64,000 nucleotides of DNA, from assembly GCA_946414885.1 (NCBI GenBank), contig CAMKQH010000015.1:32881-96880 (forward strand), in the 5' to 3' direction. The DNA comes from an uncultured Lachnospiraceae bacterium. Lineage in GTDB: Bacteria; Bacillota; Clostridia; Lachnospirales; Lachnospiraceae. Within the stretch, counting starts at the first letter, position 1. Every line of letters starts with the position of its first letter. The translations under genes and the position numbers were made by a program. The notes below the pieces were generated by a model. It worked only from the letters and a program-made list of their open reading frames with translations. It did no database searches and had not been told where the DNA came from. This document shows positions 54,481 through 57,699 of the stretch, in pieces.

Positions 54481-57105
54481 TTAAATAACGTCAACTTTGC
54501 AGCTTGCCTCCGGAAGTCCCTGCGCGCGCACGGTCAGCGTGACTTCCCCGGCCTCATAGCCCGCGCGCAGGATGGCAAGCGCGTGCCCGCGATACGAAAC
54601 GGTCTCATTGTCCGTATAATCTTCCTCCGTTATGGGGTTGGCCGTACCAAAGCCTGCAAGGGTGGCCACGGCGCCCGCCGACACACCTGCATCCGCGCAG
54701 CTTGCCTCCGCGCCAAGCTTTGTCTCCGCATCCGCGCAGCATGTCTCCGCCTCAAGCTTCACCTCTGAATAGGGCACGACGCGGCCCTGCGCGTCCACAA
54801 TTTCAATGTTAACGTAAATCACGTCATGCCCGTCTGCCTTCATGCTCTGCTTCTCGGGAGTGAGGCGAATGCCGACAGGCTTTGCCGCCGTCGTAAGTGC
54901 GGCGCGGCTAACTTCCTTCCCACCGTCATAGCTGACCGCAACAACCTCTCCGGGCTGGTAAACTGCGTCAAAACGCACGCTCCTCGGGAGCGGACGCTCA
55001 TTGGAAACAGGCTTGCGTCCGATGGACGTACCGTTCACGAAAATCTCCACTTCCTCTGCCTTCGAGAAAACAACAAGCTCTACGGGCTTTCCTTCATAGC
55101 CCTCAAAGCTCCAGTCAGAAAGCACGTCCGTGAATCCCCACGCGCTGATGAGCTCCTTCTTGCCATAGTTTTTCGGATGAACGGTATACAGATGCGTCGT
55201 CTCGCTTCCCCAAATGACGCTGCGATATGCGCCCTGCGGAAGCTTCTTTCCGGTGATGTCAAAATCTGCGTCGTTGGCCGTGCGCCAAGGGAAAGGAGAC
55301 GTGGTCTGGGGCATCAGTGCCCACTGACCTCTTTGCAGGAAGGGATCCTCGGGATCCAGGTAAACAGACTTTCCAAGGCCTGCCTCACCCAGATAATCCC
55401 ATGCCGTCCAAGTAAATTCGCCAATCACGTACGGCAGCTTCTCCACGAGCGGCCAGCGGAAGCCAATCTCCTTCGGGAAATTCTCCGATCCAAGAATCAC
55501 GCGGTCCGGGAACATCTCATGATCCTTCTCATAAAGATCCTCCATGTAATTGTATCCAACAACGTCAAGCCCATTCGTGAAAGGCTCCGTCCCCGTCTCC
55601 CACAGATTCTTTGAGGCATCGTCCGCCGCGTTTTGCTGGCTGTTCTGGCCCTCCATGAGCTCGTCGTCAAGTCCGCTCCAAAATGAGCAAATTCCATTGC
55701 TGACGGGCCTCGTGCCGTCCAGGCTCCTCATCTTCTCTGCAAGCTTTGTCGCCAACGCATACCCGTCATTTAAGCCTCCGCGCTCCGGAATTTCATTGCC
55801 CGTGGACCAAAGGATCACGCTGGGGTGCGAGCGGTCCCTGCGGACAAACGCCGTCAGATCCTTCTCCCAGTACGCATCAAAGAACTGGTTGTAATCACCG
55901 CCGCGCTTCGCCATTCCCCAAGCGTCAAACGCCTCGTCAAACACGTACATGCCAAGTCTGTCGCAGGCCTCGATCAGCGCCGCAGACGGCGGATTGTGGG
56001 CCGTACGGATCGCATTAAATCCTACCTCTTTCAGCTTCTTCACCTTCCGCGCCTCGCTCTCATAGAGCGAAACCGAACCGAGCAGACCATTGTCATGATG
56101 CAGGCATCCGCCCTTTAATTTCACCGTTTTTCCGTTAATCCTAAGGCCGCGCGCCACGTCTGCCGTGATCGTCCGGATGCCAAAGAGAACCGTCGCCACG
56201 TCACTCTGCCTTGCGCCACTTGCGCCGGGTTCCCCTTGCGCGTCAGCCTCGCTTGCCACACGTTGCGTCATATTTTTCCCCGCTTCTCCCGCGATATTCT
56301 TCACTATGCCTTCTTCCTCGCAGGGAATAAAATGCGTGCGGTACGCGCCAAGATCCGTCACCTTCGCCGTCACCTGGTATAAGTTTGGATGATCTGCATC
56401 CCAAAGCATGGGATTCTCCACGGAAAACGCCATCCGCGCCGTCTCCGTCGTCCGGGCGCCCACGCAGATCACGCGCCGCGTAACAGCCGCCACGCATCCC
56501 TCTGCGGTCAGCGTAAGCTCGACCTCCACCAAGCGCTTTTCCAACGTATCATTCTGCACGTCCACCTGCGCCTCCAAAAAGGCCCGTCCGTCCGCCACTT
56601 CCTTTGTCGAAACAAAGATGCCGTCCACGGGAACGTGAACCTTCGGCCCGTGCACAAGCTTTACGCCGCGGTACAGGCCGGAACCGGTGTACCAGCGGGA
56701 ATTGGGCTGCATGCTGGCGTTGACGTTGATCGTGATGCGGTTCTCCTTCCCAAAGGTCACAAGGTCCGTCAGATCCACGTAAAACGGCGCATAGCCATAA
56801 TGCTGCTGCCCCGCCTTGTAACCATTGACGTCGACGGTCGCATTCAGCATCACGCCGTCAAACTGCAGTCCAACGCGCTCTCCCTCCCATTCCTTTGGGA
56901 AAAACACAAATTTCGTGTAATTTGAATTTCCTCCGGTAAAATATCCCATGTCCATCTTTGCCGGCGCATCCGGCGTCACCGCCGTACTGATCATGCCATC
57001 ATGCGGCAGATTCACCACCACGCCGGGATCCTCCCGGAGCATCCCCAGACTATCCAAAAATCCTCTTCGAAACGTCCACTCCCGATCCAATGCTATGCTC
57101 TGCAT
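54481..57105 (-). CDS. glycoside hydrolase family 2 (beta-galactosidase-like, with DUF4982/Ig domains)
   Basis: NSRWYTGSGLYR, KGGCLHHDNG, NAIRTAHNPP, WSTGNE, GSE, WTAWDYLGE. Confidence 0.93.
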   Translation of the reverse strand: MQSIALDREWTFRRGFLDSLGMLREDPGVVVNLPHDGMISTAVTPDAPAKMDMGYFTGGNSNYTKFVFFPKEWEGERVGLQFDGVMLNATVDVNGYKAGQQHYGYAPFYVDLTDLVTFGKENRITINVNASMQPNSRWYTGSGLYRGVKLVHGPKVHVPVDGIFVSTKEVADGRAFLEAQVDVQNDTLEKRLVEVELTLTAEGCVAAVTRRVICVGARTTETARMAFSVENPMLWDADHPNLYQVTAKVTDLGAYRTHFIPCEEEGIVKNIAGEAGKNMTQRVASEADAQGEPGASGARQSDVATVLFGIRTITADVARGLRINGKTVKLKGGCLHHDNGLLGSVSLYESEARKVKKLKEVGFNAIRTAHNPPSAALIEACDRLGMYVFDEAFDAWGMAKRGGDYNQFFDAYWEKDLTAFVRRDRSHPSVILWSTGNEIPERGGLNDGYALATKLAEKMRSLDGTRPVSNGICSFWSGLDDELMEGQNSQQNAADDASKNLWETGTEPFTNGLDVVGYNYMEDLYEKDHEMFPDRVILGSENFPKEIGFRWPLVEKLPYVIGEFTWTAWDYLGEAGLGKSVYLDPEDPFLQRGQWALMPQTTSPFPWRTANDADFDITGKKLPQGAYRSVIWGSETTHLYTVHPKNYGKKELISAWGFTDVLSDWSFEGYEGKPVELVVFSKAEEVEIFVNGTSIGRKPVSNERPLPRSVRFDAVYQPGEVVAVSYDGGKEVSRAALTTAAKPVGIRLTPEKQSMKADGHDVIYVNIEIVDAQGRVVPYSEVKLEAETCCADAETKLGAEASCADAGVSAGAVATLAGFGTANPITEEDYTDNETVSYRGHALAILRAGYEAGEVTLTVRAQGLPEASCKVDVI

Positions 57106-57141
57106 ACTTTCCCTTCCTCCGCCTATGATTTCATATTTTGG

Positions 57142-57166
57142 GTCACGGGGACGTGCCTACTGACAC
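57142..57166 (+). repeat. REP-like repeat, copy 4
   Basis: GTCACGGGGACGTGCCTACTGACAC. Confidence 0.8.
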
Positions 57167-57194
57167 ATTTTTGATAAACCACACTCGCAATATG

Positions 57195-57372
57195 CTCGAG
57201 GGGATGGCTTGAATAGTATCCCTCAGGCATATTTGCCAAGCGTCGGTACTTAGGAGGCGTATACGAGCGGAGACAGCATTTATGCTGGTCCCGTTCGTGA
57301 CTCCTTAGTACCGCTACGCTGCAAGTATAGCGCGAGCGTGCCTGAGGGACACTATCAAGCCTCAGCCCCGAG
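57195..57372. other. ~180-nt rod-like imperfect palindrome between inverted REP-like repeats (REPIN/MITE-like or ncRNA)
   Basis: nested pairings GGCTTGA/TCAAGCC, ATAGT/ACTAT, TCCCTCAGGCA/TGCCTGAGGGA, CGGTAC-T-TAGGAG/CTCCT-TAGTACCG, ACGAGCGG/CCGTTCGT, CAGCA-TTTA-TGCTG. Confidence 0.75.
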
Positions 57373-57389
57373 TTTTTGGGGTTCTAAAC

Positions 57390-57414
57390 ATGTCAGTAGA
57401 CACGTCCCCGTGAC
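57390..57414 (-). repeat. REP-like repeat, copy 5 (inverted relative to copy 4)
   Basis: ATGTCAGTAGACACGTCCCCGTGAC. Confidence 0.8.
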
Positions 57415-57503
57415 CCCATTTGTCTCTTTCACACACTTAAAATCAGTTTACCACGTTTCCACGCAAATACAAATCAATTATCTTGTACATCCCATGGCTT
57501 TTC

Positions 57504-57532
57504 TTGACGTCTGCATATTGCAAAACTATAAT
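57504..57532 (+). promoter_or_regulatory. sigmaA promoter upstream of the pfkB-family gene
   Basis: TTGACG-17-TATAAT. Confidence 0.75.
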
Positions 57533-57656
57533 TTATTTAAGCGGCGGACATCCGACAAACCATGGCTAAAACTAAGATCTTGGTGTAGCTTACCGCTCAT
57601 GACCAAGCATGGCTACGGCAATGACCTTGACGTAAATTGACTTTCGGAAGATAAAT

Positions 57657-57681
57657 GTGTCAGTAGACACATTCCCGTGAC
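57657..57681 (-). repeat. REP-like repeat, copy 6 (in the pfkB 5' UTR)
   Basis: GTGTCAGTAGACACATTCCCGTGAC, directly before the AGGAGG RBS. Confidence 0.75.
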
Positions 57682-57699
57682 ACAAAAGGAGGAAGAAGC

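Follow-up and report, generated by a model that had tools for sequence, protein, structure and literature searches.

Long palindromic intergenic repeats that fold into hairpins are found in several groups of bacteria, and together with hairpin-forming miniature inverted-repeat transposable elements (MITEs) they include those named ERIC or IRU in the enterobacteria, Correia in Neisseria, and BOX and RUP in the pneumococci. The hairpin motifs TwoAYGGAY (RF01731) and Clostridiales-1 (RF01699) of gut Clostridia are also multi-copy and strongly covarying, and we know of no function for either. Both are listed as not cis-regulatory in the survey table of Weinberg et al. 2010 (PMC2864571), who rated TwoAYGGAY as 'probably' a biological RNA. 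A further group comprises the REPINs and bacterial interspersed mosaic elements (BIMEs), with GTAG-tagged repetitive extragenic palindromes (REPs) that are mobilised by the REP-associated tyrosine transposase, RAYT (Di Nocera et al. 2013, PMC3733652; Nunvar et al. 2010, PMC2817692). In GTAG-tagged REPs, the GTAG is followed by a short palindrome (PMC3733652), and the words 'Firmicutes' and 'Clostridi' are absent from the main text of this 2013 survey. Here, we describe a repeat located between the divergent GH2 and pfkB genes in a 64,000-nt stretch of DNA (the window) from an uncultured Lachnospiraceae bacterium. The window corresponds to positions 32881-96880 of contig C15 of a 3.80-Mb genome (G000) that is in 51 contigs and 97.5 % complete. 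The repeat at positions 57127-57416 of the window is likely to be of the MITE type, mobile but non-autonomous, and this copy contains a structured core, here called R1, that is conserved and strand-specific. This assignment draws on the copy number, the covariation and strand-specific marks of the core, its presence or absence between species, and the terminal inverted repeats (TIRs) together with target site duplications (TSDs) found in a relative.

The R1 superfamily is defined by its centre and not by its ends, namely by a hairpin of approximately 145-180 nt around a three-way junction. The outer stem is long and variable in sequence but paired, while the junction, a helix with a U·U mismatch and a side hairpin with a GNRA loop are nearly invariant on one strand. 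In the focal clade, the arms that enclose the core are a GTAG-tagged, REP-like 24-35-mer, which is also scattered alone in the genome. The parts of the copy in the window are:

57127-57412, no strand assigned: the insertion/deletion unit, i.e. the segment absent from the orthologous GH2-pfkB spacer of the closest relative
57140-57170, - strand: left REP-like arm, the reverse complement of TGTCAGTAGACACGTCCCCGTGAC with an A/T-rich extension; outer inverted repeat
57171-57194, + strand: left spacer from REP arm to core, semi-conserved among the REP-flanked copies in an alignment of 20 genomic copies
57195-57372, + strand: the structured core or R1 hairpin, 178 nt, recognised from the approximately 20 copies found with nhmmer, the covariance model score and covariation
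57245-57254, + strand: 5' arm of the near-invariant helix, GGTACTTAGG, in which T57251 lies opposite T57306 as the U·U (T·T) mismatch
57255-57302, + strand: apical stem-loop P4, long in the focal subfamily
57303-57312, + strand: 3' arm of the near-invariant helix, CCTTAGTACC, from the comparison of copies
57330-57337, + strand: side mini-hairpin GC-GCGA-GC with a GNRA-type tetraloop, the closing pairs of which covary
57386-57416, + strand: right REP-like arm, GTAG followed by the short palindrome ACACG-TCCC-CGTG

An initial annotation of this locus, made from the sequence alone, had described inverted REP-like copies around a segment that folds almost end to end, and both points were borne out. 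The two arms, each of 31 nt, are 90 % complementary and can close the hairpin, and the composite unit of 285 nt folds nearly end to end with an energy of -157.7 kcal/mol on the + strand and -158.5 kcal/mol on the - strand, against a shuffle mean of -86 (z = -13.7 and -14.2, respectively). The outer part of R1 is made up of a closing stem, CTCGAGGGG/CCCCGAG, then a variable but covarying stem and then the stem CTCAGGCA/TGCCTGAG. The inner part consists of the three-way junction, the conserved helix GGTACTTAGG/CCTTAGTACC and a clade-specific apical stem. The side hairpin CGCTA..TAGCG drawn in the initial annotation was not recovered when copies were compared, and the comparison instead supports GC-GCGA-GC at 57330-57337, with ACGCT (57316-57320) paired to AGCGT (57239-57243). 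Most relatives have, in place of P4, a 5-bp stem and a U-rich loop of 7 nt. A 57-nt module of two hairpins is present in nine of the 20 copies in the genome, at one fixed site just 5' of the side mini-hairpin. A partial version of this module (48 nt, 87.5 % identical) also lies at 97892-97939 of contig C13, outside any detected R1 core.

Among the 20 genomic copies, the blocks CTCGAGGGG, CTCAGGCATGTGTGCCAAGCGTCGGTACTTAG, CTTAGTACCGATACGCTGCA, AGCGCGAGCGTGCCTGAG and CCCCGAG are near-invariant, and the stems between them vary yet remain paired, with double changes in 33 of the 64 predicted pairs. Covariation across the family was measured on 42 hits from approximately 30 genera obtained with covariance model R1 (CM R1), a shorter model built from copies that lack the apical stem P4. 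In this set, 94.3 % of cells are paired, compensatory changes are found in 45 of 47 base pairs, and the covariation score is 0.756 (shuffles, 0.194; slid partners, 0.07-0.13). In 40 of 40 family members, the side loop is of the GNRA type (GAGA, GCGA, GCAA, GAAA, GGAA or GGGA), and covariation is also seen in its 2-bp stem. At the U·U mismatch within the helix GGUACUUAGG/CCUUAGUACC, column 96 is T in 100 % and column 157 is T in 93 % of members, and in the same alignment one bulged U is invariant and the apical 7-nt loop is U-rich. Several properties distinguish the two strands. G·U pairs outnumber A·C pairs by 59 to 20 (93 to 20 when one conserved G·U is counted), the + strand fold is more stable than the - strand fold in 64 of 69 copies with a mean gain of 6.5 kcal/mol, and CM R1 scores the focal copy at 139.9 bits on the + strand versus 24 bits on the - strand. 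The region upstream of the + strand showed no conserved promoter, no intrinsic terminator was predicted, the U-tail after P1 varying from copy to copy, and the R1 alignment includes no unpaired variable guide segment.

A count of copies in the genome had been proposed as a check on the initial annotation, and it revealed approximately 20 cores, 70-97 % identical to the focal copy (nhmmer), and 88 REPs. Thirteen or fourteen of the 20 cores lie between REP arms in the same configuration and the six or seven most divergent copies lack the REP. In one spacer, two opposed R1 cores are found 160-190 nt apart (contig C19, 65685-65831 on the - strand and 65993-66172 on the + strand), and an opposed pair is also present in a second species (locus L077, 7171-7398 on the - strand and 7586-7827 on the + strand). 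An exact 18-mer from the core was found at 55 loci in eight rumen Lachnospiraceae species known from metagenome-assembled genomes, and nowhere else among 185,579 species genomes. The version found in the focal clade is present in 10 of 269 species of the genus to which the window belongs, and BLAST detected no core in 24 sampled congeners. With CM R1, 55 of 150 other Lachnospiraceae genera were found to contain full-length matches, scoring 58-80 bits and numbering up to at least 20 per genome, and 146 genomes representing approximately 60 other families of Clostridia yielded zero hits. Among the genomes sampled, the superfamily is restricted to the Lachnospiraceae.

The suspicion that the element is undescribed also held as far as Rfam is concerned, as no family in Rfam 15 matches the focal copy, for which only chance miRNA hits were returned, and in 11 loci from other genera the R1 positions were likewise free of any Rfam 15 hit. 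A published description of the element was not found in full-text literature searches. An origin from a phage or plasmid was considered and rejected: the plasmid and phage collections yielded no BLAST match to the element, and two viral matches to the 18-mer were chance hits inside a gene.

The focal-clade unit of approximately 285 nt is short, non-coding and multi-copy and has inverted-repeat ends. Like ERIC, Correia, BOX and RUP, which are in the range of 150-300 nt, it is an intergenic, long, imperfect hairpin without a transposase of its own, and like them it has size variants that are due to inserts at fixed sites, in this case the 57-nt module and P4. A relative of the R1 element has the TIRs and TSDs of a MITE (see below). 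However, there is no sequence relationship to any of these families, R1 is restricted to the Lachnospiraceae, and the conserved part of R1 is the interior junction with its GNRA and U·U marks, the ends being swapped between genera. The element belongs to neither ERIC/BOX/Correia, REPIN, TwoAYGGAY nor Clostridiales-1, and the focal copy is an ordinary member of the R1 superfamily.

Comparison of species revealed occupied and empty sites. The GH2-pfkB spacer is 177 nt long in the closest relative versus 584 nt in the window, with flanks that are 88-96 % identical. The relative lacks exactly 57127-57412, which is regarded as the insertion/deletion unit because it is missing at this orthologous spacer, and also lacks 57559-57683, and it retains both genes and the pfkB promoter. 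Hence, the empty sites that the initial annotation suggested looking for do exist, close species differing in carriage both at the GH2-pfkB site and at a site in contig C19. At the C19 site, the core is missing from one relative, where a degenerate single REP is all that is present, and another genome has a core of a different subfamily (81 % identical), inverted, between the same REPs. Behind glnA, where an empty site was also sought, synteny differs in the relatives. An R1 copy occupies the hisS-aspS spacer of three species (contig C6, 46197-46433 in the genome of the window; locus L105, 1296-1537), and the 57-nt module is present in this copy only in the genome of the window, a gain at an orthologous site. 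The copy adjacent to an ABC exporter has different apical stems in two species at the orthologous site. As the type of P4 differs between copies at orthologous sites, P4 is therefore exchanged between copies. The focal copy is probably a recent insertion.

The clearest evidence on ends comes from other genera of the Lachnospiraceae. In one (G306), the core lies within a 208-nt element with inverted ends of 12-13 bp, GTTACTGTTCAC, and a perfect TSD of 8 bp flanks six of 13 copies, with seven of eight positions matching in one more. TSDs of 8 bp are a mark of transposition by DDE-type enzymes and not by Y1/HUH enzymes. In a second genus (G341), mobile units at two loci are 99.5 % identical over 613 nt, have the inverted ends AAACTGCAGTTTAG, and contain the R1 core together with a second hairpin that is TwoAYGGAY (approximately 100 bits). 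Thus, the outer arms differ from genus to genus and the core is carried between unrelated ends. The R1 core itself matches neither the TwoAYGGAY nor the Clostridiales-1 model and differs from both in having one three-way junction, a GNRA side hairpin and the U·U helix. In G341, TwoAYGGAY was detected at 2339-2502 of locus L146 and 1649-1812 of locus L150, in the interior of an inverted-repeat unit of approximately 300 nt. The end sequence of this unit, AAACTGCAGTTTAGCAACTT, has 56 copies and some of the units are fused to an R1 core. This arrangement suggests that TwoAYGGAY may itself be part of a mobile hairpin repeat. Because R1 shares a mobile unit with TwoAYGGAY, several of the orphan 'RNA motifs' of Clostridia may be mobile hairpin-repeat modules. 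Clostridiales-1 is also represented in the genome of the window, by three copies above threshold (C17:38830-39006, C38:24294-24468 and C38:21109-21336, at 116, 99 and 84 bits, respectively) and three weaker ones.

The genes next to the R1 cores are diverse and of the housekeeping kind, including type III glutamine synthetase with amt-PII, hisS with aspS, glutamate synthase, ABC exporters, glycoside hydrolases, UxuA and NAPRTase. Cores adjoin stop codons; one separates hisS from aspS and another follows glnA directly. In old copies, locus-specific outer stems lengthen the hairpin and one of these stems pairs with the last codons of glnA. At co-directional gene pairs in the focal clade, an antisense orientation of the + strand to the abutting gene is commoner than a sense orientation (29 cases versus 13). 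Of the 20 copies in the genome of the window, 14 have their + strand on the C-rich strand, which amounts to a weak replication-strand bias. Elsewhere, orientation is unbiased, at 9 to 8 with respect to the neighbours in other genera and 9 to 5 in G306, where the skew is split 11 to 8. The unbiased orientation therefore speaks against the element having a strand-specific role in host mRNAs and also against a single-stranded DNA (ssDNA) transposition process coupled to the replication strand.

The 24-mer TGTCAGTAGACACGTCCCCGTGAC that marks the arms of the focal clade reads TGTCA-GTAG-ACACG-TCCC-CGTGAC and is found with one mismatch in the left arm and none in the right arm. It occurs six times in the window versus zero expected by chance, and 88 copies with up to four mismatches are present genome-wide. 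The copies are intergenic, most of them 3-30 nt from a stop codon or next to ribosome-binding sites, and are arranged as singles, tandems and inverted doublets. Examples are:

Window 12281, 49704, 52364 and 57658; contig C22, 66668 and 67854 (locus L086, 1069-1092 and 2255-2278): REP copies

As an observation in its own right, this is a GTAG-tagged, REP-like family of 88 copies in a Firmicute genome without a detectable RAYT gene.

The dispersal of these repeats raises the question of whether the focal element is a REPIN, in which the inverted REPs would form an ssDNA hairpin that is cut and pasted by RAYT, a Y1/HUH enzyme, with the 178-nt hairpin as a passenger. There are points of likeness. 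A dispersed 24-35-nt GTAG repeat with a palindrome is found near stop codons, two inverted copies close a hairpin, the architecture resembles that of GTAG-tagged REPs (PMC3733652), and the REP-flanked copies of the focal clade have no TSD, as would be expected for Y1 enzymes. However, the conserved structured cargo between the REPs is 225 nt, the host is a Firmicute, and the REP stem is merely 4-6 bp versus the usual 6-9. The core is found without REPs in six or seven copies in the genome of the window and in all of the other genera, relatives have 8-bp TSDs, and the replication-strand bias is weak (14 to 6) in the genome of the window and absent in G306. Y1_Tnp (PF01797) was found neither in the genome of the window nor in two of five other carriers. 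Each of the remaining three has a single Y1 gene, and neither a REP nor a core lies closer than 1.5 kb to it. A Y1 transposase flanked by the REP, which the initial annotation suggested looking for, was thus missing from the genome, and the Y1 genes of other carriers are unlinked. Mobilisation by a Y1/HUH enzyme is not supported because the Y1 genes are absent or unlinked and a relative has 8-bp TSDs, and we regard the REPIN explanation as improbable. Of the original description as a REPIN/MITE-like element, the part that stands is the multi-copy, non-coding nature and the inverted REP-like ends, and the part that is not supported is the HUH/Y1 (RAYT) mobilisation. Even less can be said for a 6S-like regulatory RNA, or for a riboswitch-like cis-regulatory leader of GH2 or pfkB, and we give these almost no credence. 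The rod-like fold of approximately 180 nt with an internal bubble does recall 6S RNA, as the initial annotation had pointed out, and the position between the two genes could suit a leader. However, RF00013 has no hit at the locus (E up to 10), a genuine 6S RNA is encoded elsewhere in the genome (C21:36925-37131, 60.6 bits), and the R1 element is multi-copy and mobile. A leader is rejected on context, as the 20 copies lie beside unrelated genes in both orientations with no recurring downstream gene family, the closest relative without the element keeps both genes and the pfkB promoter, and the element is upstream of that promoter.

A more serious contender treats the core as a functional structured RNA of a new orphan class, which would have a promoter of its own or arise by processing of read-through transcripts, with the DNA repeats as mere vehicles. 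The RNA would bind a conserved Lachnospiraceae factor or act as a regulator or ribozyme, and the interior would outlast the ends because of selection on the RNA. Much of the evidence described above can be read in this way, including the GNRA loop in 40 of 40 members, the invariant U·U and bulged U and the conserved G·U closing pair over approximately 30 genera, the excess of G·U over A·C, the greater stability of the + strand in 64 of 69 copies, the location of the core between unrelated ends in different genera, and the unit shared with TwoAYGGAY (100 bits) in G341. At orthologous sites, moreover, the core is invariant while the stems drift with compensation. On the other side, no conserved promoter is seen, and orientation to genes is near random outside the focal clade, so that read-through would yield the wrong strand about half of the time. 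Apparent compensatory change can also arise from module swapping or from template-switch correction of palindromes, and GNA/GNRA-type loops and G·T pairs are stable in ssDNA too. We consider this explanation possible but rather doubtful. The MITE reading and the functional-RNA reading are not mutually exclusive, and a combined form, in which the conserved three-way-junction core is a new, Lachnospiraceae-specific class of functional structured RNA and is transported as cargo by MITEs whose ends are unrelated from genus to genus, is slightly less doubtful, though still tentative. The RNA would be recognised by its GNRA side hairpin, by the helix with the invariant U·U and by the U-rich heptaloop. 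Selection would act on the RNA, through factor binding, regulation or catalysis, and the transposons would serve as the vehicle of dissemination.

The assignment as a MITE-type mobile repeat, which we favour, has to be set against several observations that do not sit easily with it. The presence or absence at the focal site is unpolarised and a precise deletion in the relative would also fit, and beside the GH2 homologue of a more distant species, a divergent copy without REPs occupies the corresponding position. Consistent TSDs were not found among 15 REP-flanked copies of the focal clade, and none of the genomes examined yielded a transposase with matching ends. Ordinary MITEs keep their ends and not their interior, and the R1 element does the reverse. 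Finally, cores at orthologous sites are invariant while stems change, a pattern that fits a function selected in the host as well as it fits gene conversion between copies. If the MITE-type assignment is correct, the copies would be moved in trans by a DDE-type transposase and further shuffled by recombination between copies. The core would presumably act as a single strand, most likely as RNA and otherwise as ssDNA, and might either bind a conserved factor or benefit the element.

The search for an autonomous partner was extended in several directions. The genome of the window contains no large repeats. Ordinary genes and no transposon lie between REP pairs spaced by up to 6 kb, one pair (in C22) having been checked, and the open reading frame (ORF) inside that pair we take, from its translation and not from a Pfam comparison, to be an aldo/keto reductase. 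The TIR pairs of G341 are all approximately 300 nt apart and no longer TIR-bounded element was seen. An IS6-like partner for the G306 MITE was sought, and only rve-type (IS3-like) genes without the TIRs turned up. The absence of an autonomous element is not proven by these results because draft assemblies often omit insertion sequences. IS110 bridge RNAs and the omega RNAs of TnpB/IscB were dismissed as the partner genes (PF01548 and PF07282) are absent from the genome of the window. Retro-mobility was likewise rejected, the sole reverse transcriptase of the genome having its own RT-5 RNA motif upstream. This enzyme of 439 aa (G000:C3:134265-134906; locus L168, 1069-2388, - strand) is accompanied by the RT-5 motif RF03026 at 2466-2573 of L168 (86 bits), and a search of 3.6 kb around the gene gave no hit for a group II intron RNA. 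It looks like a stand-alone reverse transcriptase with its own non-coding RNA (ncRNA) rather than a group II intron.

The Lachnospiraceae are dominant bacteria of the gut and rumen, and the R1 element is found in about one-third of the sampled genera of this family, often in at least 20 copies per genome, and is absent from Rfam 15. It makes up a sizeable unannotated part of these genomes. Repeats of this sort break assemblies, inflate ORF calls and separate co-transcribed genes. The usual pattern of MITEs is reversed, in that the interior is conserved across genera with marks of the RNA type and the ends are replaced. Should the core prove to be a functional RNA, it would represent a new and widespread class of ncRNA with a built-in means of spread.

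Around the focal copy, the location between divergent genes given in the initial annotation was confirmed with Pfam. The element is flanked on one side by the GH2 hydrolase gene (54481-57105, - strand), approximately 25-35 nt upstream of its start codon, and on the other by the pfkB kinase gene (57700-58596, + strand). It is also upstream of the pfkB promoter, and no evidence of a locus-specific host function for the focal copy was found. Two further features lie outside the element on the pfkB side:

57504-57532, + strand: predicted pfkB promoter TTGACG-17-TATAAT, context, conserved in the closest relative
57652-57687 (24-mer at 57658-57681), + strand: third, solitary REP just upstream of the pfkB ribosome-binding site

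The second segment that is missing in the closest relative, 57559-57683 (125 nt), is in the 5' leader of pfkB and should be transcribed because it is downstream of the conserved pfkB promoter. It holds a direct repeat, GACAAACCATGGCTA.../GACCAAGCATGGCTA..., and the solitary REP, which ends just ahead of the pfkB ribosome-binding site.

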